In this document: one piece after another, positions 5,792 to 56,971 of the stretch
Numbering within the stretch: the first letter of the stretch is position 1
Layout: each line of letters starts with the position of its first letter
Assembly: GCA_015152565.1 (NCBI GenBank)
Contig: SUTT01000002.1
Span: 18,788-82,787 of the forward strand
Reading direction: 5' to 3'
Source of the DNA: Cyanobacteria bacterium SIG27
GTDB taxonomy: Bacteria; Cyanobacteriota; Vampirovibrionia; Gastranaerophilales; Gastranaerophilaceae
Length of the DNA: 64,000 bases
Notes under the pieces: generated by a model
Databases searched by the model: none
What the model saw: the letters and a program-made list of their open reading frames with translations, nothing else
Told to the model about the DNA's origin: nothing
Program-made: the position numbers and the translations under genes

Positions 5792-6346
5792 ATGGCAGAA
5801 ACAGAAGCTAAAATGTTTGATCTGGTTGATGCGCTAGAAGCATTATACGAAGAGGGAATTCCCGTTTTTCCTGGTCGCTCAATTGTAGATTCAAAAAGAT
5901 TATATAGCATTGCAAAAGCTTTTCCAAATGCAATTTCAAATGAAATTAATGACGCTAGAATTATCCTTAAAAAGAAAGATGAAATTCTTCAAGAAGCTAA
6001 ACTTAGAGCAGAAAGAATTATTCAAGACGCCGAAAACGAAAGATATAAGCTTTTAAATGAATCAAGTTTGAATAAAGCTATGGAAGAACATGCTGAAAAA
6101 TTCAGACAAACTGTTTTTGATGAATGCCAACAAATCAAAATGGCGGCGTTCAACGAAGCGCAAGAATTAAGATTGTCTGCCAAAAATGAATCGCTAAAAA
6201 TGAAAGAAGATTCTCAGCAATATGCTCAACAGCTTCTAAACAATCTTGAACAAGACTTAAATAGACTTTATCAAGTTGTTATGAATGGTCAACAAAGACT
6301 TCAAGAAATGAGAAGCGCAGAATCTATTCAACACTTACACGAATAG
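5792..6346 (+). CDS. Conserved coiled-coil protein of unknown function (type often auto-annotated as ATPase/ATP-synthase-b-like)
   Basis: 184 aa and starts 1 nt after the coaD stop. A long charged helical region follows the N-terminal LVDALEALYEEGIPVFPG motif. No catalytic motif was seen. Confidence 0.6.
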   Translation: MAETEAKMFDLVDALEALYEEGIPVFPGRSIVDSKRLYSIAKAFPNAISNEINDARIILKKKDEILQEAKLRAERIIQDAENERYKLLNESSLNKAMEEHAEKFRQTVFDECQQIKMAAFNEAQELRLSAKNESLKMKEDSQQYAQQLLNNLEQDLNRLYQVVMNGQQRLQEMRSAESIQHLHE

Positions 6347-6414
6347 TTAACAAAAATTAAAATTTTAAGCAATTTTAAATCTTCATAGTATTTATCTTAA
6401 AGCAAGGTAATATT

Positions 6415-9177: not shown

Positions 9178-9321
9178 CTTTTCAGGATGGTTTGAATTTG
9201 ATAAAACTATCTCTTGATATTCATTTTTATCAAAATTTATTCCCCAATTTTTAGTGTTTAGGGTTTTATATTTTGGCTTCTTTTTCTTCTTTGGTTTATT
9301 TTCTTTATTATCTTCACTCAT
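9172..9321 (-). CDS. Small ORF (49 aa), Lys-rich N-terminus, translationally coupled to the upstream gene
   Basis: Below the track cutoff. My translation is MSEDNKENKPKKKKKPKYKTLNTKNWGINFDKNEYQEIVLSNSNHPEKL*. The ATG shares one base with the TAA of the 9321..10958 gene (TAATG). The 3' end overlaps the convergent 6415..9177 stop by 6 nt. Confidence 0.4.
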   Translation of the reverse strand: MSEDNKENKPKKKKKPKYKTLNTKNWGINFDKNEYQEIVLSNSNHPEKL

Positions 9322-21987: not shown

Positions 21988-24900
21988 ATGGTCGATAAAA
22001 ATCAAATAGAAATTAAAATAACCCCTCTTAGTGTGTCTGATTTGAACGTAGGTAAGGTTGAAATTAAACCAAGCGAATCAACTAAACCCATTAGTTTTGA
22101 TACACCAAAAACTCCAAGTTCAGAAGCTTACAAGCAAGATTGCTTTAATTTAAATGAAGATGATATGTTCATTTTAGAGGCTTTAAGTTTTGAGAGCGCT
22201 TGTCCAGAGGTAAGCGATACCCCTTATAATGATTTTGAATACACCTCGCACAGCGCTCCTGATATATCCGATTCTGATAACGAAGTAAATGATGAAGCAA
22301 ATGAAACTCAAGCAGAAGAAAATTCTTCGCAAGAAAATTATGATTCAGAAATAAATAAATTAACTCAGCAATATTTACGAAAACCCATGAGTGAATGCTC
22401 TATTCAAGAAATTAACCAAGCCCAAACTCTTTCAATGCTTGAAACAAGTCTTGAAACAATCAAAGAGGGTTTAAAAGCGCAAAGCGATTCTGATGGATTA
22501 GTGAGCGAAGCTTTTGATTTAATGAAATACCTTACAGGTTTGGGAATTGACCAAAAAGATGTAGAAGCGGCAATTTTAAAACAAGAACAAACAATTGAAG
22601 CTCTAAAAAAAGCAGCACAAAAAGGAAACTTTGAAGAAGTCTTCAAACAAGCCACAGGAGTCGAATATGACCCTGTTAAAATAAGCGAATATCAGCAAAA
22701 AGAAGCAGAAATTAAATTTATTGAAATGGAAGTTGCAAGAAGCCAAGCTTTTTGTGAAGCTTTGAGCGATGAAGACACAATGTATGATGCACAAGCGACG
22801 TTTGACAAATTTATTGAATTTTACGGAAAAGAAAAAGGTGAAAAAGAGTTTCTTGAAGCCTTAAAATATGGCTTTAATAATACGATTGATTCAGGCTTTT
22901 ACGACCCAACAAATCCAATTGAGAGTATAAATTTTGATAAAAATGGAAATATTGTTTTAAAATTCCAGGATAAAACAACAGCCCAATTGGGAGATATCAG
23001 CACAATTAATCCTAATAACTTAACACCAATATATTCAGAAAAATTCAAAAACTCTTTGGTTGAAAATAACCTTGAAACTTTTGAACAAACAACAGGTTTA
23101 AACTATGAGCAGCTAGTTCAAGAATATACTGCGTTATCTCAAGAAACTTTAGGAAATGCCAATGCTGTAAGTAATACTTTAAATGAATATATTCAAAGCC
23201 AAGAGGGTTTTATTGATAAATTTGCTGGTCTTGTTCAACTTGGCGGCATTGGCTTAATGGGGCTTGGAAGCGCTGTTGTATTTTTTAGCGGAGGAACGGC
23301 AGGGCTTGGAATGATTAAAACAGGGCAGTGGATGGCTCTTGGAGGGACGTTTGGAGATGAAGCCTTAGAATTAACTGATACTTTCACAAATAACAACTTT
23401 TTAACTGATAAAGACAAAGCAAAATATAGAGAGATTTTCAAAGACGCTTTAACGGACGCTGCTTTACTTGGTGCAGGTTATATTGCCGGAAGCGCGGCAA
23501 ATAGCTTTGGAAATTGGGTCTTAAGCGAAACCGGAAATGAAATTGCAAAATTTATAGCAGACCACGGAACAGACGTTGCACTAAGTTTGCTTGGTGATAT
23601 GGTAATTACAGGCGAAGTTGATTTTAAAGGCGAAGGTTTTAGCCAATTATTAGGCATTATAACCGGTTCTGCTTTTTCAAGAATTAACGCTATGCATCAA
23701 TCAAATTTTGAAGCTGCGGATGTTTTTTATAAAAGCGGAGATTATGATAACGCATATAAATCATTAATTGAAAAGGGCTATAAAGATTCTGATATTCAAA
23801 AATATTATGGCAAACAAGAAATCCAAAGATTTAACGAAATGTATGAAAAAACAGGAGATTTCACTTCTGTTTTGGCTCTTGCTCAAAAATCCAAGCTTTT
23901 AAATGATAATCAAATTAAAAATCTTGAAGTTACAATGATGCTTAAAAGCTTAAAACAAGATGGAATTGAAGCCGCAAAATATATGGGCTATGATTTTTCT
24001 TGCCCACAAGGAAAATTAATTGCTGATGATATTAAAATGCTCTATGATGCAAAAACAACTGGTGTTAATGTTAATGATTTAATGGTGCCAACAAAAGCTA
24101 ATTTTGAAATTGGAAAATCAGAAACAAAAGTTGGTGGACTTTTTGAAAGTAACGGAAAACTATATTTAAAAACAGATGAAAATAATTGCACAGAATTAAA
24201 TATTAGCAAAGAAACATACTGTCATCTTTTCCCACCACTTGATAGATATTCATCAGGTCAACAAAATTCAGGAGATTGCTATTTGGTTTCAGCGCTAAAT
24301 GCAATGATGATTAATCCAAAAGCACAAGAAAAACTATTATCTTGTTTTTCTGAAAGTGTTGATGAAAACGGAGTAAAAACAATCACACTTGCTTTGCCTG
24401 ATTCTGACATGAAAATTGAAATCCTAGATTGGGAAACAATTGATGATTTAGGGGTAAACCCTAAAAAGGCAGTGACAGGTGCTTTAGGCATGCAATTATT
24501 AGAATATGGATATAAGAAAAATTTAGAATATAAAGAAATTAAAGATTTAACAGATGAAATTACTTCTATTGAAGAAAATATACTTACTGATTGGGAAATG
24601 CGAAAAGAATATTTAACAAGTCTTGGAATAGAAAACTATGAGGTTTTTTGCGAAAAAATTAAAAAACCTAATTTAATTTCAAATTACAAAAAAGATATAG
24701 AAGCTAAGTTCAATATAGAAATAGATGATTTAACATTTGAATCTCTTAATTATGATTTTATACTGGCTTATGACAATGGAAAGTTGTATCCTGCTTGTCG
24801 AGATTTAATAATGGATAAACTTGGTGTAGATGCGAAAACAGCCCAAGATATTTACGACAATGGCTTAAAAGAAGCTTTAGCATTATTTAACGTTAATAAA

Positions 24901-28145: not shown

Positions 28146-31100
28146 TTACATTGCAGTTTTTAGTGCTTTTTTTGCTAAATAGAATGTTGTAACTGTGTCT
28201 TTTAAGAAAAATTCGCCGTTCTTTGGTTTCAAGCAACCTTCTACGATTTCAAAAATTTCGTTTGGCGCACCAAATCTTCTTAGTTCGTAGCCCTCTGGAA
28301 TATATACAGGACATCTGCCATTTTTATCTTTTAGCTCAATGCTTCCTGTTATAATTTTATGTGGTTTAATTTCTTTTGCACTTTCGCTATCTTTAAATGA
28401 AGCTTCGCCATAAGGCAAACCAAGGTTTGTTACGATACTAAGAGTTTGTGAGCCTGTGCTATCTTTTTTAAATACTGGCCAGATGATAGTTTTGTCTGCG
28501 TTTTCAAGTTTTTCATCTAATACAATTTTTTCATCCAGTGTTTGTCTTACTATTTCAATATTTTTTGCAAATGTTTCATGGTTTTTATTGTTTGCATCTG
28601 AATCAATTTTTAAAGTATCTTTTAAGAATTTATTTAAAGCTTCAGTATTAGAACTTAATTTTGCCAATTCTTTAAATAACTCTTCAACACTCATTGCATC
28701 TTTTTCTTTAAGATAATTTTGAATTTGACCAACAAAATATCCTAAAGCACCATCATTGATTTCTTTTGTTGCATATTTTTTATTTAATTCTGAAAGTTCT
28801 TTTTTAATTGGCAAAGTATCGCCAATTGCTTCGCAAGAAATTGGAGCACCGTTTCTTAGGGCGCTTAATCCTGGGTTTTGATACAAGCCTGAAGTTTCTT
28901 GCATTTTAGTGTAATATGGCTTATAACGTGGATCATCTTTTAATTGGTGTTGAATTTGGTTTCTAATTCCAAGATACATATTTTTAGAAGACGATTCATA
29001 ACCCGTTTGAGCAAATTCGCCGCCGCCATATAGTGTTGGGATACCAACGCAAGCATTCATAACTTGCCATAATCTTTCATTATATATCATCGCATCTTTT
29101 AACATAGTGCTATGGAAGTTTAAAAGATTATCTTCGCTATCCATATCAGCACCTTTCAAAACATCTCTGATTGTTATTTCATAAGGTTTTACACCGAAAC
29201 TTTCAGCACGTTTGAAACTAGGTGCAGAATTAGCATCTTTTTTACCATTAACAAGATTTTCTAAAGATTTATATAATTTTTCTCTAATTGTTTTATTTTT
29301 CTTTGTTGCTTTTGCGTCATCTTTAACATCTGGATATAATTCATCGATTGTTTTTCTCATCGCTAATCCAACTGCTACAGCTTTAGGACAAAGTTTATCT
29401 AAGTCTTTTCTGCCTGTTAATTCTATTATTTGTTTAGTGTCTTTTAATTTACTTAAATCACCTGATAGGAACACTGACATATCTAGTGGAAAACAATGCA
29501 TAACCGTTGGTTTGTCGTGGTTATTATAGAACATATGAGAATAAATTGCAGCATTTGGCTGATTGTATATCATCAATTCTTCCATTGCATTTTTAAGCTC
29601 ACACAAATTACCAGCTTGTCCTGAAACATCACTACCCCATTCAGGGTCAACTCCAGCAAATTTAGAAAATGCATTAAAGCCTTTTGCATATTCAGAAACT
29701 GTTGTTGAATTTGTTTTGTTTATGAAATTAACCTGTTGAAGATAAACTGGTCTTTCTTCATATTTTGTAGGTCTACCTGCTTGAATCCAAGCTTCGGTCA
29801 TTTTGGCATCGAAAGGTCTATAAACTTTCTCTGCAAAATCAGCATCTTCCCAAGTACCATCAGGGAATGAAGTAAATTCGCCCATTGCAGTTAATTCATT
29901 GATAATATATGGAGCTTTGTTATATTTTCTGATATTTGCAATAAATCTATCAAAAAAGTCCATAATGCCAGGGTTATATTTTTCACCGTTAAAAATGATG
30001 TCTAATTGAGCTTTTTTATCTCTAACGGCATCAAGGTCGCCAATATCTTTTGCAGCGTCAAAACGCCAGTTTAAACCGCCTTTACCTTGTATTACAACGG
30101 CTTCTGCTAGTTTAAACTTATCAAGTGAAATTCCTGATAATTCTTTTTTCATTCTATCTTGCAAAGTTGCAGTAGATTTATCGCTTAAGCCAGCTTTAAT
30201 TTTAGAAACAACTTGTTTAACTTCGTCTTGTGGATCGATTGATTTGTGTGATTCAAGAGATTTTAAAGTAACTTGTTTTAATTTTTCAATATCAATTTTT
30301 CCACCGCTAACTGCATCAGGATTAAGTGCTGAAGCGTAAATATGTCTTAGGATTTCAACACCATAAGTTTTTTCTACGTATGTACGATAATCTTCGTTGC
30401 CTTTGAATTGAGCAGGAATTGCACCCTCAATTGTATCATTAAAGATTTTTAAAACTTTTTCACTTGTTTCAGGGGTTAAAAGTGCTTTAGTAAATTCTTT
30501 TTGAGCAAAAATTGCACTTAATTCTTCGCTAGTTTCTAAAGATTGCAAAGGAAATTCGGCAACATAATCTTTAGCAGTTTTCTTATCTTCGCCTAAAACC
30601 ATTGATTCTAGCTTAGATAAAACATTTTTAATTTTTCCAAATCTTTCGTTATCAACGCCATTTGCTTCGGCAACTTTTTTCAATTCTTCTTCAGGTAATT
30701 TTGCTGATTCTAAGATTAAATGAGATTGGAAAGTTTCAGCCCAATAAGAAGCAACGCCATATAGATAATCACGTGCGTCAATAAAACCTTTAACGTTTGC
30801 AGGATTTTGCCTATCAGGATTAGATAGATTCATTTTAATGATATCAACGTTTCCATCCCAGAATGTCGCACCGCCAACTTTGTTTTTGGCAACAATTCTG
30901 TAATTAGGGAATGTAAGAAAATCGTCAACAGCATCAAGTTCGGTTAATAAAACAGCATTTTTATTTTTAAATACTTTTAATTTTGCATCATTAGCATCAA
31001 CTTCAAAAGCATAAGGCTGAACAGAGTCTTGATGAGTTGTTATTTCGTAGTGGTCAGCTGGCGCTTTATCATAAGTGAAATGTAATTTTCCATCAACTTG

Positions 31101-32138
31101 ACTTGTTTCTTCTAGTAATCTGTCATCGTAAAATTGAATATATGTTGGTTTATTTTCATCATATTCTGCTGTACCTTTTTTATTAACTACACGAACACCA
31201 ATGTGTTTATAAACTTCTTTGGTTTCTTCAGAAGTCATATCAGGTAAAACACCAAGAGATAATGTGCTATTTGGGTCGATTTTAAGCATATTATAGTATG
31301 GAGATTTTTTGCCCCATTTTAAAACGTGCTGTACTAATGGTGATTGTAGACCTTGCGATGTAAAAGCACCATCTGCAACATAGCCTTTACCTTTTTTGAA
31401 TAATTCAAAAACAAATTCTTTAAAATCATCCAAATTACTGCATTGATAGTGGTTAGCAGGCCAGTAACCATGGCTTGATATTTGGTCGTCACTGATATCT
31501 GGAGTTGTCATACAATATCCATAATTATCAAGCTCATTGGTATTTTTTAATAGCCAAGTTAAACCTTTAATGTTTCCGCCAATTTTATTAAAGTGATTTC
31601 TAACAAAGTCTTTTTTAATGTCAATTCCATCTTGCGAAGTTTTTAAAACAACGTCACTATCAAGAAAACTATGGCGCATAGAGCCACCTTTAGGTGAAAC
31701 ACCATAAAAACGACCTTGTTCAATTACATTCATCTTATCGCTATTAACAATTAAGCCGTTTTCGTCGATTTCGCCTGCAAGCCCAATTGTTTTAAACGAA
31801 TCAACTTCATATCTTAAAAATTTACCGTCTTTATCTTCAATTCTATATCTATAAGCAAAGCCTGAAGAAACATCTCTAAAAGCTTTTTGACTAACTTGCA
31901 ATGTATCATCTGTTTTAAAAGGAAGAGAATTAATATGTTCTATTTTAGGTTTTTTGTAGCCATCTGTTTTTTCATCAGGATGTAAAAATACAAATTCAAG
32001 AAAAACTTTCTCATCTTTTGAATGAGGCGGAGCAATAAACTTAAAAACAGGGGTGTTTTTAATGCTATAAGCACCTTCCATACCTTTAAAATTAATATTT
32101 TTATTAGTTGCTTTAATGTTATTAATTGAGAAATCCAT
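28146..32138 (-). CDS. 1330-aa GH13 (alpha-amylase superfamily)-like giant protein with atypical region I and very long insertion
   Basis: GGNIKGLTWLL...SSHGYWPANHY is the TIM-barrel start. GYVADGAFTSQG is region I, with the usual NH replaced by TS. NWRFDAAKDIG is region II with the Asp present. IINELTAMGE is region III. FYNNHDKP is region IV. The N-terminus is MDFSINNIKATNKNINFKG. Confidence 0.65.
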   Translation of the reverse strand: MDFSINNIKATNKNINFKGMEGAYSIKNTPVFKFIAPPHSKDEKVFLEFVFLHPDEKTDGYKKPKIEHINSLPFKTDDTLQVSQKAFRDVSSGFAYRYRIEDKDGKFLRYEVDSFKTIGLAGEIDENGLIVNSDKMNVIEQGRFYGVSPKGGSMRHSFLDSDVVLKTSQDGIDIKKDFVRNHFNKIGGNIKGLTWLLKNTNELDNYGYCMTTPDISDDQISSHGYWPANHYQCSNLDDFKEFVFELFKKGKGYVADGAFTSQGLQSPLVQHVLKWGKKSPYYNMLKIDPNSTLSLGVLPDMTSEETKEVYKHIGVRVVNKKGTAEYDENKPTYIQFYDDRLLEETSQVDGKLHFTYDKAPADHYEITTHQDSVQPYAFEVDANDAKLKVFKNKNAVLLTELDAVDDFLTFPNYRIVAKNKVGGATFWDGNVDIIKMNLSNPDRQNPANVKGFIDARDYLYGVASYWAETFQSHLILESAKLPEEELKKVAEANGVDNERFGKIKNVLSKLESMVLGEDKKTAKDYVAEFPLQSLETSEELSAIFAQKEFTKALLTPETSEKVLKIFNDTIEGAIPAQFKGNEDYRTYVEKTYGVEILRHIYASALNPDAVSGGKIDIEKLKQVTLKSLESHKSIDPQDEVKQVVSKIKAGLSDKSTATLQDRMKKELSGISLDKFKLAEAVVIQGKGGLNWRFDAAKDIGDLDAVRDKKAQLDIIFNGEKYNPGIMDFFDRFIANIRKYNKAPYIINELTAMGEFTSFPDGTWEDADFAEKVYRPFDAKMTEAWIQAGRPTKYEERPVYLQQVNFINKTNSTTVSEYAKGFNAFSKFAGVDPEWGSDVSGQAGNLCELKNAMEELMIYNQPNAAIYSHMFYNNHDKPTVMHCFPLDMSVFLSGDLSKLKDTKQIIELTGRKDLDKLCPKAVAVGLAMRKTIDELYPDVKDDAKATKKNKTIREKLYKSLENLVNGKKDANSAPSFKRAESFGVKPYEITIRDVLKGADMDSEDNLLNFHSTMLKDAMIYNERLWQVMNACVGIPTLYGGGEFAQTGYESSSKNMYLGIRNQIQHQLKDDPRYKPYYTKMQETSGLYQNPGLSALRNGAPISCEAIGDTLPIKKELSELNKKYATKEINDGALGYFVGQIQNYLKEKDAMSVEELFKELAKLSSNTEALNKFLKDTLKIDSDANNKNHETFAKNIEIVRQTLDEKIVLDEKLENADKTIIWPVFKKDSTGSQTLSIVTNLGLPYGEASFKDSESAKEIKPHKIITGSIELKDKNGRCPVYIPEGYELRRFGAPNEIFEIVEGCLKPKNGEFFLKDTVTTFYLAKKALKTAM

Positions 32139-32188
32139 AGCTCTTCCTTATATTAATATTCTTCCCTATTTGAGGCTTTCTTTAACTT

Positions 32189-34090
32189 TTACACATATTT
32201 TTGTTGCATTACATTTTGAGGATTTGATAATTTTTCAATATCGGCGTTGTCGATTTCAAACACGCAAGCTCTGCTTGAACCAAGTTCAACTGTCACAGAA
32301 CCATCTTTATTGTTTTGGAATTTACAATTATCACCATAGCTTGGCATTAAGTTATTGAATTTTTGTTCAGCTTTTAAGCCCGGGATTTCAATTCTTCCGC
32401 CAACTTTTTGATTTACATTTCTATTACCTATGAACAACAGTGTTTTTCCGTCTTTATGTCTTGCAAAAGCAACAATTTCAGGATTGTTTGTAGGTAATAC
32501 TATAAATGAACCTCTGGTGATAACATCTTGGGCGTCATTCATTTGAAGTTTAGTTTTTCTTCCTACAACTTCGTTATATTTATTGTTTCTTAGTGCGAAT
32601 GCGGCTTTAACCGTATTTGAAATTTCAGGAGAGTCGCCACCTGGTCTTCTTGATTTATTGAAGATGTCCATTCTTCCTGTATGAACTGTGCATTCGTGAT
32701 TGTCAGTTTGAGTTTCTTTAACTAATGCATGGTCATAAGGGAAAATGTAGTAATCGCCCGTTTGAACACCGTCTGTCATATATGGATTAACTTGTGGCAA
32801 CATTGCTTGAAGCGTTGTTGTAAACATTACCCAAGGAGCTCCGCCGTATAACATTGGAGAGCGGTCATCGTGAGTTGCAAAAGAACCGATTAATGATTTA
32901 GGCTTTCCAATTTCGTTGTTCATTTCAATATTTTCACGAACATAGTCATATAAATCTTGTGCTTTTAGCCAATCTGAATAGATATGATATTGACCATAAT
33001 AGCTATCAAAACCAACCTCAAGAAGCTCTTGTGGTCTATCGTATGGCATATTAAGCTGTGGTGAAGCGTCTTCATGGGTGTATGTTTCAGCTAACCAACC
33101 AAATTCTGGGTCTTTTGCTCTTGAATAGTTAATAATAACATTCCAAAACTCAACTGGTTTTGCTCTACCTACGTCAGCTCTGATACCATCAATTCCAAGT
33201 TCAATACAAGCATCAACATATTGTTTGTGCATATCTAATAATGGTTTATTTAGTTCACGAGTTTGTTCATTAACAAAAACTTTGAACATTCTGATATCTT
33301 GCCAGCCTTGAGGAACTTTTTCTTTTCCGTCAGCGCCAATTGCCATCATTTCAGGATGAGCTTTTGCAAAATCAACCGAAGCACAAGACGGCAAGTCTAA
33401 CATAACTTTTTGTCCACGTTTGTGACATTCTTCAATATAATATGCAAATTGTGAAAAACGAACATTTACGTCATTTTTGTCCATTTTTTCAAGCTTTTTG
33501 CCTGTTCTTTTTTCGTAAATTTCTTCAATTCTTTTTCTTGCTTCTGCTGGTGGATTTTCATCAACAAGTTCTGGGTCAATTGCTAAAGAACCATCGCTTT
33601 CAACAAACAACGCTGGAGCGTATAGCGAACCTGCTGTCCCCATAGCTTTAGATTTTCCAGGTGGATGAACAGGTAAAACGTGTTGAGTGTTAAATCCTAA
33701 ATTAGAAAATTCATCTAATCTTTCAACTGCGTTAACAAAAGTCCCAACTTTTTCATCCCCTTGAATTAATTCGTTGCCGTCTTTGTCTTGAGAATTCATA
33801 ATTCTTGGAATAACAGCAATTATGTTAGCTTCGTTATGAGTTAACATGCTTTTTAGAGTGTTTCTGTAACCTGGAACATTTTTTTGTGCATCAGTTAGAT
33901 TAACGTTTACTAGCGCATTTGGTGCTAAAATTTGCTTGTTTTGAGCTAAAAGAGTTTGCGCTAAAAGAGGCGAAAACGCAACAACACTTTGAATTTGAGG
34001 TTGTGCTTCAACTTGCTTTTCTTGTGGTTTAGCTTGTTGCACATTCGCATATTTAACTAGCATTGGACTGATTGCTTGAATGTTGCTCAT
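32189..34090 (-). CDS. GH13 family enzyme, GlgE-like (alpha-glucan maltosyltransferase-like) by motif resemblance
   Basis: 633 aa. Motifs seen are VLPVHPPGKSKAMGTAGSLYAP, GIDGIRADVGRAKPVEFW (region II), GWLAETYT (region III) and SFATHDD (region IV). The N-terminus is MSNIQAISPML followed by a Q/P-rich linker. No signal peptide is present. Confidence 0.75.
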   Translation of the reverse strand: MSNIQAISPMLVKYANVQQAKPQEKQVEAQPQIQSVVAFSPLLAQTLLAQNKQILAPNALVNVNLTDAQKNVPGYRNTLKSMLTHNEANIIAVIPRIMNSQDKDGNELIQGDEKVGTFVNAVERLDEFSNLGFNTQHVLPVHPPGKSKAMGTAGSLYAPALFVESDGSLAIDPELVDENPPAEARKRIEEIYEKRTGKKLEKMDKNDVNVRFSQFAYYIEECHKRGQKVMLDLPSCASVDFAKAHPEMMAIGADGKEKVPQGWQDIRMFKVFVNEQTRELNKPLLDMHKQYVDACIELGIDGIRADVGRAKPVEFWNVIINYSRAKDPEFGWLAETYTHEDASPQLNMPYDRPQELLEVGFDSYYGQYHIYSDWLKAQDLYDYVRENIEMNNEIGKPKSLIGSFATHDDRSPMLYGGAPWVMFTTTLQAMLPQVNPYMTDGVQTGDYYIFPYDHALVKETQTDNHECTVHTGRMDIFNKSRRPGGDSPEISNTVKAAFALRNNKYNEVVGRKTKLQMNDAQDVITRGSFIVLPTNNPEIVAFARHKDGKTLLFIGNRNVNQKVGGRIEIPGLKAEQKFNNLMPSYGDNCKFQNNKDGSVTVELGSSRACVFEIDNADIEKLSNPQNVMQQKYV

Positions 34091-36420
34091 TATTTAGCAC
34101 CTCCGTTTTCATCTTGTGGAAATTCTTTTTTGATATTTCCAAAGAATGGTTGAACTAGCAGTGTAACTGCAATTAGCGCTCCTGTCATTGGAACAAATAT
34201 ACTCTTCCAAGCTTTGTTGTTTCCGAATGCTTTAGCACATTTTTTAGCTATATCCATAAATGAACCACAAGCCAAATAATCCATTGTTGGTGCAGCTTGA
34301 CTGCTGTTTTTGAATATTGTTTTTAAATTATCAACAATTGCTTCAATGTTTGGCATTATTTCTTTTTCATTTGCAAACACATTGCCTTTGAAGATTTTTT
34401 CTAATACCGCATTATATTCATTAGAATTTGGATTGTATCCATTACATTTTGCAACAGAAATTGTTCCATCGTATAGAATTTTTCTTGCAAGAATTAAATC
34501 ATCAGCTGATAAAGCGTCTTTTAAATCACCTTTTGCAAGTCTTCTTTCAAAGTTAGCGCAAATCAAAGCTTTTGATTTAATAGCGTTAGTATCGATTTCT
34601 TTAACTTCAATAAAGCTGCGTATAATGTTTAATAGATTTGGCTCTGTTTCGCCACCGCCCATAACAGCTTTCATAAGGGTTTCAACATCAGCTTTATCAA
34701 AACCTTCAAGTTCTAAATCAGCAATAATTGATTTAAGATTGTCTGCATCTTTTAATTTTGCAACAACTTCTTCTACGCCTTCAAGATTTTGTTTTGGCAT
34801 TAGACTTTGTAAGAATTTTTTGTACTCATCATCTGATAAATCTTTAACTTTGTCTGATATTGTTTTGGATAAGATATCAATTACAGCGTCGTCATCTTTC
34901 TTTCTGATTTCGAGAAGTTGTTTTCTGTTGTATCCTAAAACTTCAAAAAGTTTTGCTGTTGATTTATTAAAGCTTGAAGTGTAAACTGATTCTGCTTTTG
35001 AACCAACTACAGGATTAACCATATCAACATAAGCACGAGCTCTGGCTCTCATTGTGGCTAATGGACCTTGATTGAAAGATTTAATAAATTCAAAGAATTT
35101 TTCATCGTTTGTTTTTGCAACAGCTTGAATATGTTTTTTGCTTTCAGAAGCAAGTGCATATTGTGGATCTTCCAGAACTGAAAGCACTTTTTTGAAGCTT
35201 AAATCATCGCCAATTGCGCCCATAATCTTCTTAACATCAGCGTCACTTAAAAGCGCACTTGTTTGTTTAGCTACTTGTTCAACTTCATCATCGTCCACAA
35301 CAAACTGAGCAACAGGGTCAGAAGCTACAATTGATAATGATTTTCTTAAAAGCGTTTCTAATTCATCTTTATCAAATTCAGAGAATTTGCCAGATTTTCT
35401 TAAATCTTGCAAAGTTTCTGCCATTCTTGTTGGATTATAGCCTTTGAATACTTTTTTATCGTCAGCATCTTTAAAAGCACCCAAAAAGTCGCTTGGAACA
35501 AGAATATCTGACAATTGTTTAAAGAAATCATCATCAAGCGCTTTGCCTTCATAATTTTTAATTAAGGCATCAATTGCACTATTATCAACGTCCATTGGGC
35601 TAACGTTTTTGATATGGTCAGAAATTCCTGAATTTGTTATATTTTTAACTTTGTTGAAATCGTTTTTAATAACGGCATCTTGAATTTTTGGCTCAATAAA
35701 GTCACCAAACAAAGCGGTTAATAACGGTGTTGCGCCGCCTGCTGTTGCCATCCATAGAGTTCTATTTTGAAGAGCTGTTTTTCTTTCTTTTTCTTCGATT
35801 TTTTCTCTACCATTTTTAGAATCGTAATCAATTCCAGCTCTTTTAGCTTCTGCTCTAAGTTCTTTTTCATCTCTAGCATCTTTTACGATAAATTGGTTAT
35901 CTAACCAATAATCTTTTTTATCGCCTTGAGCTGAGATATATTTTCTATCAATTCTAAAACCATGAACTAATCTTGCAGGAATATTGATAAAGATTTTTGG
36001 CCATAATGACATTACGCTTAGGAATGTTGCGCCACCAACAAAACGCATGATTGATTCTGTTTTTGTTTTAGAATGCGCTGCAAGATATGTTGCGATAATT
36101 CCTGAGCCAAGAACCAAGCCAAGGTCATTAATTCTTCCAAGGCTGTTATCGCCCATTTTTCCTGTTTTAACTGCTGTGAAGAAATTTCCGGCATCTTTTA
36201 TGCTGTCTTTAACAGCAGTAATTGGGTTTCCGAGCATTCCCTCCTTAACCATAACTGCTTTTGCTTCGTTTGGTTTAACTTCATTTGCTCTTTTTTGCAA
36301 ATCTTGATAAATTTTTTCGTGGCGATTGTTTGGTTTTTGAGCGCCTGTTTGGGTTTGAGATTGAATTGGAGTTTTAGCTCCGCCTATTCTATTTTGTAAA
36401 AGTGGGCTTAGAGTAGTCAT
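34090..36420 (-). CDS. Polytopic membrane protein (about 776 aa) with long helical soluble domain and C-terminal TM; unknown family
   Basis: The preferred ATG at 36420-36418 overlaps the upstream stop (TAATG) and gives MTTLSPLLQNR. TM segments include LGLVLGSGIIATYLAA, FVGGATFLSVMSLWPKIFI, LWMATAGGATPLLTALFG and the C-terminal IFVPMTGALIAVTLLV. Its stop overlaps the next ATG (TAATG). Confidence 0.7.
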   Translation of the reverse strand: MTTLSPLLQNRIGGAKTPIQSQTQTGAQKPNNRHEKIYQDLQKRANEVKPNEAKAVMVKEGMLGNPITAVKDSIKDAGNFFTAVKTGKMGDNSLGRINDLGLVLGSGIIATYLAAHSKTKTESIMRFVGGATFLSVMSLWPKIFINIPARLVHGFRIDRKYISAQGDKKDYWLDNQFIVKDARDEKELRAEAKRAGIDYDSKNGREKIEEKERKTALQNRTLWMATAGGATPLLTALFGDFIEPKIQDAVIKNDFNKVKNITNSGISDHIKNVSPMDVDNSAIDALIKNYEGKALDDDFFKQLSDILVPSDFLGAFKDADDKKVFKGYNPTRMAETLQDLRKSGKFSEFDKDELETLLRKSLSIVASDPVAQFVVDDDEVEQVAKQTSALLSDADVKKIMGAIGDDLSFKKVLSVLEDPQYALASESKKHIQAVAKTNDEKFFEFIKSFNQGPLATMRARARAYVDMVNPVVGSKAESVYTSSFNKSTAKLFEVLGYNRKQLLEIRKKDDDAVIDILSKTISDKVKDLSDDEYKKFLQSLMPKQNLEGVEEVVAKLKDADNLKSIIADLELEGFDKADVETLMKAVMGGGETEPNLLNIIRSFIEVKEIDTNAIKSKALICANFERRLAKGDLKDALSADDLILARKILYDGTISVAKCNGYNPNSNEYNAVLEKIFKGNVFANEKEIMPNIEAIVDNLKTIFKNSSQAAPTMDYLACGSFMDIAKKCAKAFGNNKAWKSIFVPMTGALIAVTLLVQPFFGNIKKEFPQDENGGAK

Positions 36421-37421
36421 TAGCACACCTCGTATTCTTTATTTGTATCAACTTTGGTTTTAACAGTATCGGGTTTATGTTTAAATCCAATTGTTGGAAT
36501 TAACCAAGTTAAGAATGTTGCAACAGCGGAACCGATAATCAAAGCTTTTCCGCCAAATTTAGTTAAGATATTTCTTTCATTGCCGTCCCATAATTGAATA
36601 GCTGCTTTTTTGAGTGTTTGAACCCAGCTTCTTGGGCTTTTTAGGTTCATATCCCCAAATGCTTCTTGGAAACCATAAGCAACACCAGTTGCAGCAACGA
36701 TATATTTGCCGATATTTTCTAGGGCTGTTGTTCTTGCTTTAACGCCTCTGATTTTTTCGCTTGAAGTTTGGTTTGAAGCATTTAATTTATTTTTAAAACC
36801 TGCTTTTTTAACGATTTTATCGTCATGATAGTAAGCATTTCCGTGGTTTAGCTCAGCGTCTTTTGTTAATAAGTCAGAACGATAGAACTGAACTGAATCA
36901 TAAACTCCTGGGTATTGGGTTCTAACAAGTCCTTTTTCTTGTCCTGGTTCAGGAAGTTCGTTTACTTTTTTAACATAACGCATATCGAGGTCAATGCCTG
37001 TTGAGCCATATATTCCAGCTCTTGCTAGTCTTTGATATGCCCATTTTCCAAGTCCATAAAAAATAACGCCAGCGCCCATTTTTTTAGCTACAGAATTAGC
37101 TGCTGATTTATCCATAATATTGAAAGCTTTGTTTGCTCCGCAATATAAACCAATCATAAGAGCGCTACCGACTAAATATGGGACTTTACCCATTGCTAAG
37201 TATTCGTAAAAATCGCTATTTTTTGAACCAGCAAAACCTTTTGGAAAATATGTAAAAACATCATTATAAAGTTGATGTGCGTCGGCTTTTAAGCCAGTCA
37301 AAAGAGTTTGCTTATGAATATGTGATTCGTTTTTGTAATATTTTTCTTTCTTTTCCTCGTTAGATACTAAATATCCAACTTTAGGCAGATTTTCAACACT
37401 CGGACTTGTAATTTGTTGCAT
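36420..37421 (-). CDS. Polytopic membrane protein (about 333 aa), paralogous to the N-terminal module of the 34090..36420 product
   Basis: The preferred ATG at 37421 gives MQQITSPSVENL and is preceded by GGGG. TM segments are VPYLVGSALMIGLYCGA, GAGVIFYGLGKWAY, IGKYIVAATGVAYGF and ALIIGSAVATFLTWLIPTIGF. The RTTALEN-x-TM motif is shared with its neighbour. Confidence 0.7.
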   Translation of the reverse strand: MQQITSPSVENLPKVGYLVSNEEKKEKYYKNESHIHKQTLLTGLKADAHQLYNDVFTYFPKGFAGSKNSDFYEYLAMGKVPYLVGSALMIGLYCGANKAFNIMDKSAANSVAKKMGAGVIFYGLGKWAYQRLARAGIYGSTGIDLDMRYVKKVNELPEPGQEKGLVRTQYPGVYDSVQFYRSDLLTKDAELNHGNAYYHDDKIVKKAGFKNKLNASNQTSSEKIRGVKARTTALENIGKYIVAATGVAYGFQEAFGDMNLKSPRSWVQTLKKAAIQLWDGNERNILTKFGGKALIIGSAVATFLTWLIPTIGFKHKPDTVKTKVDTNKEYEVC

Positions 37422-37625
37422 AGTGACCCCAAACAAATACCCACAATTATATAAACAACACTAAATTTGAAATTTTGCCATTTCATTTAAATATTCTTAA
37501 CAATTATTAATAACGTAAAATGTACACCCAATCTGTTTTTGAGGTCATGACAATCATTAACTACAACACCATTAACGAATATTTATTTGTTGCAAATAAT
37601 ACTGAAAATTTTGTACAATATTATT

Positions 37626-39953
37626 ATGACGCAAGGCTTTTTTCAATTTAATAACTCTATTATAAACGAAATAAGAAATTTTGCTACATCTTCTTTTGAC
37701 TTACTTTTCATGAGTGGACCAAAGGGGAGCACAAAAAGCGAAACGATTGAAAAAGTTATTCCAGAATTAGAAGAAGATAATCTTGTTTTTCAGCATTTTT
37801 GTTTTGAAAACACTGTGATTGATGATTTTCTTTTAAATTTTTATGATGCATTAAGAAATTTCTCGATTATTCAAAAAATATATTTAAAAAAATTCACATC
37901 AGATAATTTTAAAGAAAAAGTTAGTCACTATTTTAAAACAATTGATGCTAACTGTATTATCATTGTTGAAAACTTTGAAAAAGTAGATTCAAATATTGAA
38001 ATCGTAGATTTTTTATCTCACTTGGCAAGTTATACAAACGTTAAAATCATTATTGTTACAAGAAATGGCGAAAAAAATCTTTTTAGATTTAAAAAAATAA
38101 GAACTCAAAATCTTGAATTAAATCAAATCAAAAAAGACGATTTTAAATCTAAGTTATCAATTTTATCTGAACCAATGGACATTGATACAAAAGAAAAATT
38201 TTACGACATAACTTCAGGTCTTGAATTATATCTTAAAATGAGCGTTAAATATTGCACAACCGCTAACACAACAATAGCAGATATGATTAATGAGTTTGAG
38301 CGCAAAAATATTAGCTCTCATGTATCTTATGAAGAATTTTTAGTTACAAAATTTGTTTCTTTAGTTCCTGCAATTTATAAAAATCTTTTAAAAATTTTAA
38401 GTGCAATTTCTCACCCTGTAAGTATTGAATTTTTAAATGTTTATAAACTTGGAAATCTATCTTATGTTGAATATTTAACTAAAAATTGTCTTGTTAATAA
38501 CTTCAAAAAAGAATATTATGTAAAAGATTATTTTAGACAATACATAACAAAATCATTTTCAATTCAAGAACGTGTTACATATTATAAAAATTTAGTTGAA
38601 ATTTACGAAAATGAACTTACAAAAAGCCCTAAAGATAGACTTTTAAGGCTTTCAAGAGAATCAATAAGAAAAGAAATTGAAAATTTTAAATCAAAAATCC
38701 CATCAATTAATTCAAATGAAAAAGGACAAAAGTTTTCATATTTAGGAATTGCAGCCTCTGCTTGGAACAGCGAAAAAGCTATTCAAAAAAGCAAATTGAG
38801 TGAAAAATTAAATAAAATCAAAGAAAGAAAAATATTTTTAACAAAAGAACAATCAAATGTCGTTGAAATTGATAAAGACACTTTAAAACAAAACAAAGAT
38901 GAAAGAGAAAAAAATAAAAGGTTTATTATTGATTTAATTAATTCTTCAAGAGATTACACTAAAAACTATAAATATCAAGAAGCGATAATTGAGCTTACAA
39001 GAGCACAAGAAGTTGATTATGAAAATGAATTTCAAATTGAAATTTTAATTTTAATGGCAAAAAATAACGAATTTTTAAATAAATATTCTTTGGTTAAAGA
39101 ATATTATGAAAAAGCTTATGAATTAGCCAAACAGACCAATGATTCAAGAACTTGCGAAATTGAATTTTCAGTTGCAATGTTGCAAAAAAATTCATTTAAT
39201 ATTGAACAAGCAAAACAAAAATTTAACTCAATTATAGAAAAAGAACAAAATCCAAAAACATACGTTGCAAAAGCTCACCTTGAACTAGGAGAAATTGAAG
39301 AAGCAAATTCTAATATTGAAATCGCTGCTCGTCATTATAAAAAAGCTCTTGATTTAATGCTTGGGAAAGATAAAAGCCTTGTGTGCAGAGCATATTATCG
39401 CCTTGCTGTTTTGTATGATGAACATCAAGACTATGAAAATGCACTAAAATATTATCAAAAAAATTATTCAACAAGTTCTGAAAGAAGCGAAAATCGCTAT
39501 TATTCAACTTCTTTGACAAATGCTGCTTTAATTTTTAACGAACAAAAAAAATTCAAAGACGCTTCGGAATTATTAAAACTTGCTCTAATTTACGATAGCG
39601 AAATTGACGATTTTGAAAACATGTATTTTTCTCAAAAAGAATTAGCTAAAATTTATTCTCGTTTTGATGAAACAAGTTCAATTGGCTATTATAAACAAGC
39701 GCTAAATAGTGCCAGAAAAATGAATGATATTTTTAAAGAGGCATTAGTTCATTTTGAACTTGGCGAATTTTTCTATGATAGACTTGAAGATGAAAAGGCA
39801 TTGGTTAATTTTTACAATGCAAAAGTAATTCTAAAAAAAGCATCAGATAGTGAAAATATTCAAAGAGTTGAATCTCGAATTAAAGATATTAAAATGAGAT
39901 TGGATGACATTGCATTTAATTTAATTTCAGAAAAATATGAAAAACAAAATTAA
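37626..39953 (+). CDS. STAND/AAA-type P-loop NTPase fused to C-terminal TPR repeats
   Basis: The preferred ATG at 37626 gives MTQGFFQF; the track ORF starts at TTG 37587. The Walker A-like motif is LFMSGPKGSTKSET and the Walker B-like motif is CIIIVENFEKV. TPR-like repeats fill the last about 330 aa (for example YRLAVLYDEHQDYENALKYYQKN). No HTH or effector domain was seen. Confidence 0.65.
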   Translation: MTQGFFQFNNSIINEIRNFATSSFDLLFMSGPKGSTKSETIEKVIPELEEDNLVFQHFCFENTVIDDFLLNFYDALRNFSIIQKIYLKKFTSDNFKEKVSHYFKTIDANCIIIVENFEKVDSNIEIVDFLSHLASYTNVKIIIVTRNGEKNLFRFKKIRTQNLELNQIKKDDFKSKLSILSEPMDIDTKEKFYDITSGLELYLKMSVKYCTTANTTIADMINEFERKNISSHVSYEEFLVTKFVSLVPAIYKNLLKILSAISHPVSIEFLNVYKLGNLSYVEYLTKNCLVNNFKKEYYVKDYFRQYITKSFSIQERVTYYKNLVEIYENELTKSPKDRLLRLSRESIRKEIENFKSKIPSINSNEKGQKFSYLGIAASAWNSEKAIQKSKLSEKLNKIKERKIFLTKEQSNVVEIDKDTLKQNKDEREKNKRFIIDLINSSRDYTKNYKYQEAIIELTRAQEVDYENEFQIEILILMAKNNEFLNKYSLVKEYYEKAYELAKQTNDSRTCEIEFSVAMLQKNSFNIEQAKQKFNSIIEKEQNPKTYVAKAHLELGEIEEANSNIEIAARHYKKALDLMLGKDKSLVCRAYYRLAVLYDEHQDYENALKYYQKNYSTSSERSENRYYSTSLTNAALIFNEQKKFKDASELLKLALIYDSEIDDFENMYFSQKELAKIYSRFDETSSIGYYKQALNSARKMNDIFKEALVHFELGEFFYDRLEDEKALVNFYNAKVILKKASDSENIQRVESRIKDIKMRLDDIAFNLISEKYEKQN

Positions 39954-40563
39954 AATTTTAAATGAAAAACTTAATTTTTTCCCAAGTGACGAAATAATTG
40001 AAAAATTAATTCTTTGGGAAAAGATTTTTATTGAATATAATTCTCATACAAATTTAATGAGCAAAAACGACGTTGAAGTATTATTTGAAAAACATGTTTT
40101 TGATTCATTAGCAATTTTAAATTGGGATGAATTTTTAAACCATAAAAAAGTGCTTGATGTTGGCTGCGGGGGCGGTTTTCCAAGTGTAATTTTGGCAATT
40201 TGTTTTCCTGAAATTAAAATAATTGCAAATGATTCAAGAATTAAAAAAATCAATTTTATTAAAGAAATTAAAGAAAAATTAGAACTTAATAATTTAGAAA
40301 TTTGCTATTCTCGAATTGAAGATGTTGCGCCATTAGAAGTTGATTTAATTGTTTCAAGAGCAGTTGGAAAAATGATTGATGTTTATGAATTATCTAAAAA
40401 ACATCTTTGCGCTGGTGGAGATTTTTTAATTTACAAAGCAAAATTATTAGATGAAGAAATTACTGACTTTAAGAAGAAATATAAAAAAGCTGAATTTAAT
40501 ATAATTCCTTATAAACTTCCATTAGCTGAAAATTTTAATCGCAATCTTTTAGTTTTAAAATAA
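39937..40563 (+). CDS. rsmG: 16S rRNA (guanine527-N7)-methyltransferase RsmG/GidB
   Basis: 208 aa. The SAM motif is VLDVGCGGGFPSVILAI and a later motif is LIVSRAV. It overlaps the upstream gene by 17 nt. Confidence 0.88.
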   Translation: MKNKIKILNEKLNFFPSDEIIEKLILWEKIFIEYNSHTNLMSKNDVEVLFEKHVFDSLAILNWDEFLNHKKVLDVGCGGGFPSVILAICFPEIKIIANDSRIKKINFIKEIKEKLELNNLEICYSRIEDVAPLEVDLIVSRAVGKMIDVYELSKKHLCAGGDFLIYKAKLLDEEITDFKKKYKKAEFNIIPYKLPLAENFNRNLLVLK

Positions 40564-56883: not shown

Positions 56884-56971
56884 ATACGTTTCCTTAAAAT
56901 AACTCACACATAAAAAAACTATCATTTATTTTTTTTGATAATTAAAAATATTACTGTTACAAATTTTTACA

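Follow-up and report, generated by a model that had tools for sequence, protein, structure and literature searches.

A predicted operon of Gastranaerophilales couples two new membrane-protein families to two cryptic GH13 lineages

We analysed a four-gene cluster on the minus strand of a 64,000-nucleotide stretch of DNA from Cyanobacteria bacterium SIG27 (contig SUTT01000002.1, positions 18,788 to 82,787 of the forward strand; this whole stretch is called the window below). The host belongs to the Gastranaerophilales (Melainabacteria, the non-photosynthetic relatives of cyanobacteria), and its DNA has a GC content of ~30%. The cluster encodes two membrane proteins of 333 and 776 amino acids (aa), which we name M1 and M2, followed by a 633-aa GH13 enzyme and a 1330-aa GH13-derived enzyme that we refer to as the giant. 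Judged from the sequence, the four genes are one conserved, translationally coupled operon: they lie on the same strand with closely set junctions, share a single terminator and are kept in the same order in related genomes. We give about an even chance to the reading that the operon encodes a Melainabacteria-specific, self-contained module for membrane-localised trimming or remodelling of a glycogen-like glucan or maltodextrin. The novelty lies in the two families of membrane proteins, in the two cryptic lineages of GH13 and in the obligate way in which they are coupled; GH13 chemistry itself is already known. The features of the operon, with coordinates in the window, are:

36420 to 37421, minus strand: M1, 333-aa membrane protein; an open reading frame (ORF) with no known relatives
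34090 to 36420, minus strand: M2, 776-aa membrane protein; an ORF with no Pfam family
32189 to 34090, minus strand: 633-aa GH13 enzyme; an ORF, identified by profile against the PDB
28146 to 32138, minus strand: 1330-aa giant GH13-derived enzyme; an ORF, identified by family profile and motifs
about 28103 to 28138, minus strand: intrinsic-terminator-like hairpin and U-run, 8 nucleotides (nt) past the stop codon of the giant (inverted repeat I4)
36418 to 36431, minus strand: M1/M2 junction, GAGGTGTGCTAATG, a TAATG overlap with an internal Shine-Dalgarno sequence, GAGGTG
34088 to 34102, minus strand: M2/GH13 junction, GGAGGTGCTAAATAATG, a TAATG overlap with an internal Shine-Dalgarno sequence, GGAGGTG
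37422 to 37586, no strand assigned: divergent intergenic region upstream of M1, the expected place of the operon promoter
37587 to 39953, plus strand: 788-aa TPR protein, the divergent neighbour, with TPR_12 assigned by Pfam

The ORFs confirm the four minus-strand genes that had been proposed in a preliminary description of this DNA, and the junctions are as it had reported them, with TAATG stop/start overlaps at the first two and a 50-nt gap at the last. The ATG starts at 37421 and 36420 are backed by the conserved N-termini of the orthologues, MQQI... and MTxISPLLQN, respectively. At both overlaps the Shine-Dalgarno sequence is built into the end of the preceding gene: at the M1/M2 junction it lies in the last M1 codons (GAG-GTG-TGC-TAA, encoding ...EVC and the stop, where the conserved M1 C-terminus is EYEVC), and at the M2/GH13 junction in the last M2 codons (GGA-GGT-GCT-AAA-TAA, encoding ...GGAK and the stop). 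Because these codons also provide the Shine-Dalgarno sequence of the next gene, the conservation of the EYEVC and GGAK termini may partly reflect a constraint of translational coupling rather than protein function. Among 72 loci, the 1-nt M1/M2 overlap was found at 59, with GAGGTG recurrent in the junction strings, while the M2/GH13 overlap was -1 at 32 and -14 at 24. The gap between the 633-aa gene and the giant has a ribosome-binding site of its own in the window (AAGGAAGAG ahead of the ATG) and ranges from 0 to 251 nt across the same loci.

The strong terminator that had been noted after the last gene was recovered as a hairpin followed by a U-run, with a folding energy of -15.4 kcal/mol and z = -3.0 relative to shuffled sequences. 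A simple terminator scanner missed this hairpin, probably because an internal loop interrupts the top of the stem. A promoter scan upstream of the operon gave 28 promoter-like matches versus 36.5 expected from shuffled sequence, and a search with Rfam found no RNA element in 27000-38500.

Conservation was scanned in one genome per species with the giant as the query, and the neighbouring genes were then compared by tblastn at 80 loci. A relative of the giant is encoded in 161 genomes, nearly all of which are labelled Gastranaerophilales, Melainabacteria or Vampirovibrio. The order M1, M2, GH13 enzyme, giant spans ~70 species genomes, and at every locus with enough upstream flank these four genes are preceded by the divergently transcribed TPR gene and gidB, the sole exception being a distant locus (L079). 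Because the arrangement recurs in ~70 independent species genomes, we take it to be more than chance, and both the tight coupling and the conserved four-gene neighbourhood that the preliminary description had in mind are borne out by these overlaps and this kept order. Identity to the window over the best-matching tblastn segment is 49-86% for the GH13 enzyme, 34-77% for M1, 24-52% for M2 and 27-51% for the giant. Downstream genes differ between loci, and thus the block ends at the giant.

The genes in relatives also link the 633-aa enzyme physically to the membrane. At a locus from Vampirovibrionales (L081), the order is a GT5-like glycogen-synthase homologue, an M1 homologue, a 1082-aa protein, one small gene and a homologue of the giant whose regions II, III and IV are intact. 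The 1082-aa protein (P0368) consists of an M2-like N-terminal half, the last membrane helix, a Pro/Ala-rich linker and a GH13 domain. The same M2::GH13 layout is seen in fusion clusters P0371 and P0379, and P0380 is of similar length with GH13 at the same position. The point of fusion corresponds to the TAATG junction between M2 and the GH13 gene; at the protein level it falls on the low-complexity stretch with which the 633-aa enzyme begins. These fusions suggest that the 633-aa enzyme is coupled to the membrane in the window as well, and they back the earlier proposal of a membrane-associated system.

The first gene of the L081 locus (6263-8662) encodes a 799-aa protein directly upstream of the M1 homologue. 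This protein has an N-terminal motif of the starch-synthase GT5 type (KIGGLAEV) and a GT1 domain at its C-terminus, as well as a long insertion. Neither the window nor any of the 80 related loci has such a GT5 glycogen-synthase-like gene, and none was found beside the other M1-M2-GH13 trios examined.

In other lineages (31-50% GC), M1, M2 and the GH13 enzyme occur as three coupled genes without an adjacent giant, and the neighbours of these trios are unrelated housekeeping genes. Stand-alone relatives of the 633-aa enzyme also exist; these are 500-575 aa long, have no partners and likewise sit among unrelated housekeeping genes. The occurrence of giant-less trios in unrelated neighbourhoods suggests that M1, M2 and the 633-aa enzyme form a self-contained conserved core, to which the giant was added in the clade of the window. 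These data also bear on whether the synteny could be a coincidence, in which functionally unrelated membrane proteins merely form a stable block beside two cytoplasmic amylases. Synteny is indeed high in the order, and the upstream block (the TPR protein, gidB and an AddAB-like pair) is syntenic too in close relatives. However, the stop/start overlaps are conserved, the trio recurs in differing neighbourhoods and GC contexts, and the M2::GH13 fusions already largely refute such an explanation, which we consider barely credible.

A short motif, ISP[LIMF]L, is common to the N-termini of M2 (36391-36420) and the 633-aa enzyme (33940-34090). It occurs within the first 20 residues of 33 of the 72 M2 orthologues and 35 of the 74 orthologues of the 633-aa enzyme, and a second copy in the latter (FSPLLAQTLLAQ) is found in 30 of the 74, whereas M1 and the giant are nearly devoid of it. 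The motif may be a docking peptide shared by M2 and the enzyme.

We assign the 633-aa protein, on sequence grounds, as a true GH13 enzyme of the clade that holds AmyB (GH13_48), GlgE and maltosyltransferase. Residues 1-75 form a low-complexity linker with the motifs ISPML and FSPLL, which is followed by the catalytic domain and a C-terminal beta domain. Regions II-IV (GIDGIRADVGRAKP, GWLAETYT and SFATHDD) and the segment VLPVHPPGK...GSLYAP, in which the preliminary description had seen a resemblance to GlgE, are all present. Region I reads DLPSC, and the key residues R304, D306 (the nucleophile), E335 (the acid/base) and H407-D408 are invariant in our alignment of 74 orthologues. The window protein itself has no Pfam or NCBIfam match at threshold, and as a single sequence it gave a weak GH13 structure match in the PDB (4e-9), while relatives of ~515-535 aa do reach PF00128. 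The family is small, with only 327 relatives at E < 1e-3 in a full scan of 1.84 billion representative proteins.

A profile built from 22 diverse members of the 633-aa family and compared with the PDB gave as its closest relatives AmyB of Thermotoga neapolitana (4gkl, 8e-37), Streptomyces GlgE (2e-28, positions 108-510), the Thermotoga maritima maltosyltransferase (1gju, 6e-28) and a Lactobacillus plantarum protein (3dhu, 8e-27). The GH13_48 proteins 4gkl and 3dhu share with the 633-aa family the PIHPxG...GSxYA segment, a K-x-P-x-W-x-D loop and a Val after the nucleophile, and the subsite-forming segments common to AmyB and GlgE, W263-Q-D265-I and GSLYAP, are kept as well. The published signatures of GH13_48 are Asn-His in region I, a Cys (with Ala, Val or Leu as minor variants) before the nucleophile, Leu-[Asp/Asn] at the end of region V and Gly-Gln in region VII (PMC11239784). 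The residue before the nucleophile, A305 in 72 of the 74 orthologues, is thus one of the listed minor variants. In contrast, region I carries an invariant Ser-Cys (S235, C236) in place of Asn-His, and region V (W263-Q-D-I-R-M-F-K/R) ends in Phe or Leu followed by Lys, Arg, Ser or Glu, typically Phe-Lys/Arg instead of Leu-Asp/Asn. The segment NPY..DGVQTGD, with the invariant G441 and Q443, may be the counterpart of the Gly-Gln of region VII. With two of four signatures failing, in regions I and V, membership in GH13_48 was rejected. Unlike AmyB, the 633-aa enzyme also has an invariant Arg309 at the usual His position of region II and a 75-residue N-terminal linker, falls below the Pfam threshold, and has membrane proteins as gene neighbours or as fusion partners.

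The relationship to GlgE (GH13_3; 3zss, 5vsj and 5cgm) extends across the catalytic and C domains. Both have a Cys in place of the region I His (Gln-Cys in GlgE, Ser-Cys in the 633-aa family), and region II ends in KP-x-x-FW in both. However, in the profile alignment region IV of the 633-aa enzyme keeps its His-Asp where GlgE has NTPD, and the alignment starts only at GlgE residue 229 or 249. The catalytic domain of the 633-aa enzyme is preceded by only ~75 low-complexity residues. In GlgE this domain is preceded by extra beta-sandwich and helical-bundle domains, and every GlgE sequence is said to share the phosphate-binding residues N371, Y376 and N414 (Mycobacterium thermoresistibile numbering; PMC4663749). 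These Asn, Tyr and Asn residues align to K258, W263 and V307, which are AmyB-type residues and are found in 73, 74 and 74 of the 74 orthologues, respectively. A strict GlgE identity was rejected on this basis and on the absence of the N-terminal GlgE domains. The label GlgE-like in the preliminary description therefore holds in the sense of clade, but not in the strict sense of a GlgE maltosyltransferase. Because the GlgE phosphate site is missing and regions I and V do not fit GH13_48, the 633-aa family is best placed as an unclassified lineage between GH13_48 (AmyB) and GH13_3 (GlgE). A BLAST-identified "GlgE" has been reported in Melainabacteria (bioRxiv 10.1101/2021.06.18.448987), possibly a member of the 633-aa family; as this family illustrates, such a BLAST-level call should not be taken to indicate a maltose-1-phosphate pathway.

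The T. maritima maltosyltransferase belongs to the same clade; the alignment to 1gju covers part of the sequence. This enzyme transfers maltosyl units between alpha-1,4-glucans and uses no phosphorylated donor. It is soluble and has no membrane partners, whereas the 633-aa enzyme has them, although the chemistry that we infer for the 633-aa enzyme is of the same kind. According to the title of Jun et al. 2013 (cited in PMC11239784), AmyB releases maltose from non-reducing ends. Since AmyB, the T. maritima maltosyltransferase and GlgE all handle maltosyl units at the non-reducing ends of alpha-1,4-glucans, the 633-aa enzyme probably releases or transfers maltose or maltosyl units too, and since it is without the GlgE phosphate site, its donor would be a non-phosphorylated one.

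Kinship with GlgE raises the alternative of synthesis and export, in which the GH13 enzymes would polymerise or elongate an alpha-glucan by transglycosylation and M1 and M2 would pass it outward for a capsule or envelope glucan. This would agree with the place of the 633-aa enzyme in the clade of the polymerising maltosyltransferase GlgE, with the GT5-type gene (KIGGLAEV) directly upstream of M1 at one Vampirovibrionales locus, and with the large variable domain of M2, which could lie outside the cytoplasm provided that all four helices cross the membrane. However, the phosphate-binding residues of GlgE are not conserved, and the GT5 gene is missing from the window, the 80 related loci and the other trios examined. 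The conserved module also has no glycosyltransferase, maltokinase, TreS, ATPase or known export protein, and no outer-membrane component. We regard this alternative as distinctly unlikely.

The giant appears to be a GH13 core derived from a neopullulanase and split by several long insertions. Judged from its sequence, it begins with an N-terminal beta domain (~1-150), which is followed by barrel strands 1-3 with region I (YVADGAFTS, D256) and an enlarged domain B. Region V and helix 3 (KMNLSNP...YLYGVASYW, ~435-470) are separated by a ~215-residue insertion from region II (GLNWRFDAAKD, with R692, D694 and D698, the last at the His position). Region III (IINELT, E748) and region IV (FYNNHDKP, H874 and D875) follow, and then a region VII-like segment, GIPTLYGGGEFAQTGYE (1032-1048), and a ~280-residue C-terminal region. 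This spacing implies four long additions relative to the core: the enlarged domain B, the ~215-residue insertion between helix 3 and strand 4, longer loops after regions III and IV, and the ~280-residue C-terminus. D256, R692, D694, E748 and D875 are present in 74 of 74 orthologues. To our knowledge, the His residues of regions I and II are near-universal in GH13; in the giant they are replaced by T260-S261 and by D698, which is likewise present in all 74. The giant is probably active, with a specificity that is possibly unusual.

On its own, the giant of the window, which is 100% identical to a hypothetical protein of Cyanobacteria bacterium SIG27, matches nothing in Pfam or the PDB. Its family comprises 204 homologues, those with names being Gastranaerophilales. 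A family profile from 23 members matched neopullulanase, cyclomaltodextrinase, maltogenic amylase (GH13_20-type; 1sma, 1j0h and 1ea9) and the Nostoc debranching enzyme NPDE (2wc7) in the PDB at 1e-10 to 1e-8. The match is limited to profile positions 143-283, from the last part of the N domain through barrel strands 1-3; regions V, III and VII gave further colinear matches that were weaker. Like these enzymes, the giant has an N-terminal beta domain before the barrel, colinear regions I, V, III, IV and VII, and the catalytic Asp/Glu/Asp; unlike them, it is more than twice their length, carries insertions, has lost the His of regions I and II and has no Pfam match. Several relatives of the giant score above threshold for PF00128 (33-65 bits). 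The highest score (65 bits, E = 8e-18) is that of a homologue from Cyanobacteria bacterium OH_CBB_238, which is colinear with the Thermus maltogenic amylase 1sma at regions I, III, IV and VII, including DFW...E and NFVGNHDKPRL. The GH13-like regions suspected in the 1330-aa product are thereby upheld, with the triad D694/E748/D875 invariant in 74 of 74 sequences. Viewed in proper alignments, the catalytic residues of both enzymes are in place.

The homologue from OH_CBB_238 (L079, 9998-13936) is a solitary 1312-aa protein, with no M1, M2 or 633-aa enzyme nearby. It is the member of the giant family nearest to canonical GH13 (region I DAALVNE) and could bridge alignments. A recent duplication as the origin of the two enzymes was ruled out, as neither BLASTP nor hhalign gave any significant similarity between the 633-aa enzyme and the giant.

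The noncanonical signatures of both enzymes allow for a different substrate, which could be trehalose, a sucrose-type disaccharide, a glucosylated compatible solute, or a membrane glycolipid bound or presented by M1 or M2. The 633-aa enzyme has Ser-Cys in region I and an Arg in region II, the giant has Thr-Ser in region I and Asp698 for His, GH13 as a whole covers many specificities, and the loops of M1 next to the membrane contain charged residues that never vary. For both enzymes, however, the nearest relatives that have been characterised all act on alpha-1,4 or alpha-1,6 glucans, and the AmyB/GlgE subsite segments W263-Q-D265-I and GSLYAP are retained. We find a different substrate quite improbable.

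M1 and M2 appear to be two new membrane-protein families outside the recognised transporter and synthase families. M1 has 133 homologues and M2 has 110; the named ones are all Gastranaerophilales or unclassified bacteria, and the M1 homologues among the matches listed are 51-92% identical. The window proteins match nothing in Pfam or NCBIfam, no Pfam family recurs among 32 members of the M1 or M2 alignment, and PDB profile searches gave E >= 0.08. We obtained confident AlphaFold (AF2) models of M1 (pLDDT 80.7, pTM 0.75) and M2 (pLDDT 76.9, pTM 0.65), and Foldseek found no match for either in the PDB (best E 0.15-0.35, with 0.35 for M1; TM < 0.2). The preliminary description had recognised neither protein as a member of a transporter or synthase family, and these searches agree with it.

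M1 has four predicted helical membrane segments (~79-97, 113-133, 237-256 and 292-312) and invariant soluble motifs, YFPKGFxGSKNSDFYEYL ahead of helix 1 and NELPEPGQEKGLVR.QYPGVYDS..F.R.DL past helix 2, which suggest a binding or catalytic surface. The N-terminal ~240 residues of M2 resemble M1, with two hydrophobic helices, a conserved loop and a weakly hydrophobic third helix; the remainder consists of a variable charged helical insertion of ~450 residues, a hydrophobic helix near the C-terminus (740-760) and a tail of 16 residues. The two models show the same order of secondary structure: N-terminal helices, a hydrophobic hairpin, two short strands and a helix, then a long weakly hydrophobic third helix and a strongly hydrophobic last helix. 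Paralogy was not detected by BLASTP (E = 0.048). A profile-profile comparison with hhalign, based on 71-sequence alignments, gave 80% probability and E = 1.4e-5 over 205 colinear columns within the first ~240 residues, while smaller alignments reached only E = 0.0036. M1 and M2 are therefore probable paralogues, as had been suggested. The description of both as polytopic is only partly secure, as Kyte-Doolittle hydropathy exceeds 1.2 in only two of the four predicted helices of M1 and three of the four of M2.

If M1 and M2 were instead a new channel or transporter for maltooligosaccharides, the two GH13 enzymes could stand at its cytoplasmic opening and break down dextrins as they enter, so that the operon would serve uptake-coupled catabolism. 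The dextrins would come from dietary starch in the gut or, for Vampirovibrio, from the starch of its prey. We view this reading as possible but unlikely. The hosts are starch-exposed fermenters or predators (PMC4040986, PMC4451040), the enzymes are of hydrolase/transglycosylase type with intracellular dextrin degraders (AmyB, neopullulanases) among their relatives, the membrane helices are rich in small residues, M1 is highly conserved, and in Gastranaerophilales the operon is regularly flanked by a TPR protein with a weak likeness to MalT. However, the predicted folds of M1 and M2 are unlike known transporters in the Foldseek comparison with the PDB, neither protein has more than four weakly hydrophobic helices, the module has no energy-coupling component, and the TPR neighbour is not conserved beyond Gastranaerophilales.

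The TPR protein has a P-loop-like N-terminus (GPKGSTKS) in addition to TPR_12 and is syntenic at 68 of the 80 loci. Together with gidB (39937-40563, plus strand), it adjoins the operon at every Gastranaerophilales locus whose flank is long enough; no match to it was found at the distant loci L081, L083 and L084. A role as a MalT-like regulator was rejected, since TPR_MalT scored 24.5 bits versus a cut-off of 45, no DNA-binding domain was found and the protein is restricted to the order.

The trimming or remodelling of a glucan at the membrane remains the reading that we favour. The conserved module has no nucleotide-sugar glycosyltransferase, kinase, ATPase or known exporter, and its enzymes are only of hydrolase/transglycosylase type. 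Because it lacks both a glycosyltransferase and an energy-coupling component, we prefer trimming or remodelling to de novo synthesis or export. The preliminary description had left open whether the system builds, remodels or exports an alpha-glucan. Of these, remodelling fits best, while building and export are unsupported, as there is no glycosyltransferase, energy source or export part. In the mechanism we propose, M1 and M2 would most likely form a hetero-oligomeric membrane anchor, on which the soluble loops that are strictly conserved in M1, together with the N-terminal portion of M2, would provide a docking surface. The 633-aa enzyme would be held on this anchor, predicted to be M2, through its flexible N-terminal linker. 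There it would act as a retaining glycosidase or transglycosylase that releases or transfers maltose or maltosyl units from a glucan or maltodextrin, and not from maltose-1-phosphate. The giant, co-expressed in Gastranaerophilales and encoded nearby in Vampirovibrionales, might attack the same polymer at other linkages or at branch points, in an endo or debranching mode. As the preliminary description had stated, neither enzyme has a signal peptide: both are without a hydrophobic segment at the N-terminus, and the maximum 19-residue Kyte-Doolittle values of the 633-aa enzyme and the giant are 1.07 and 0.86. We place both enzymes in the cytoplasm for this reason, so that the site of action would be the cytoplasmic face of the inner membrane and the substrate a glycogen-like glucan or an imported maltodextrin.

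Several observations weigh against this reading. Hydropathy and the positive-inside rule did not decide the topology in 71-72 orthologues of M1 and M2: the counts of Lys and Arg around the helices are indecisive, and the third helix is weakly hydrophobic in both proteins. In theory, the GH13 domain of the fusions could therefore lie in the periplasm. The soluble loops of M1 are so extremely conserved that this protein could be an enzyme or a transporter in its own right and not a passive anchor. The giant is without the His residues of regions I and II and may be atypical in specificity or even in activity, and with no Pfam match for the window protein, its barrel is deduced from motifs and colinearity. 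Finally, the GT5-like gene ahead of the module at one Vampirovibrionales locus and the GH77 genes ~5 kb away at two loci fit synthesis as well as degradation.

The GH77 genes (amylomaltase-type) lie downstream of the module at two unrelated loci (L001, 19220-21190; L084, 16807-19020), and this placement is not conserved. It is suggestive of a link to maltodextrin metabolism.

The published record gives a similar picture. Gastranaerophilales have been described as fermenters predicted to use starch or glycogen (PMC4040986), and Melainabacteria carry GlgC, GlgA and a GH57 GlgB (bioRxiv 10.1101/2021.06.18.448987). This context fits alpha-glucan metabolism and does not fix its direction. In our literature search we found no paper describing the M1, M2, 633-aa or giant proteins. 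All four are annotated as hypothetical, and yet the operon is a signature of Gastranaerophilales, which are common gut bacteria with few or no cultured members. Because standard domain models miss both GH13 lineages, the capacity of these bacteria for alpha-glucan metabolism would be under-counted in censuses of carbohydrate enzymes.

Among bacteria it is unusual for a GH13 enzyme with intact catalytic residues to be fused to, or docked on, a membrane anchor of its own, and this points to a metabolism of starch or glycogen that is spatially organised at the membrane. That a domain of the GH13 fold can be tethered for good to a membrane protein is known from the SLC3 heavy chains rBAT and 4F2hc, which are related to the neopullulanase and oligo-1,6-glucosidase groups (PMC11239784). 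The SLC3 chains are eukaryotic and catalytically dead, with one membrane helix and a 12-helix amino-acid transporter as partner, whereas the operon enzymes have intact catalytic residues and unrelated membrane partners. A bolder idea, which we think quite improbable, is that M1 and M2 represent a new class of machinery that couples GH13 transglycosylation to the movement of alpha-glucan or maltooligosaccharide across the inner membrane, driven by glycosyl transfer and not by ATP. If the anchor does conduct a polymer, this would bear on how alpha-glucans move across bacterial membranes, and translocation by glycosyl transfer would be the first example of a component that is missing for exported alpha-glucans such as the capsule glucan of mycobacteria.

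The genes around the operon are those of an ordinary chromosome and include RibBA, FliM, Era, phosphoglucomutase, a nucleotidyltransferase, PriA, PolA, CarB and the AddAB-like pair. Four further ORFs have no Pfam domain at the thresholds used: 6415-9177 (plus strand, 920 aa), 9321-10958 (minus strand, 545 aa), 19405-21912 (plus strand, 835 aa) and 54481-56925 (minus strand, 814 aa). The gene at 21988-25437 (plus strand) encodes a 1149-aa protein with a sub-threshold match to calpain-type cysteine proteases near QNSGDCYLVSA (residues 757-788) and no other domain. It is followed by ORFs of 303 and 115 aa. The three are not kept next to the operon in relatives: of them only the 303-aa ORF was matched, at 1 of the 80 loci.

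A 275-aa protein encoded at 27048-27875 (plus strand), whose gene converges on the operon terminator, has a prepilin-type N-terminal methylation motif (MKKAFTLAEVMIVL...) and a Cys-rich C-terminus. Between this pilin-like gene and the terminator (27927-28070) we found nested inverted repeats, GTCATTCTGAGGGA / TCGCTCAGAATGAC with CGAAGAATTTA / TAGATTCTTCG inside them, and a GC-rich palindrome (GAGGGCGCATGCCCTC). The region looks like a small palindromic element, whose 23-nt core occurs only once in the window.

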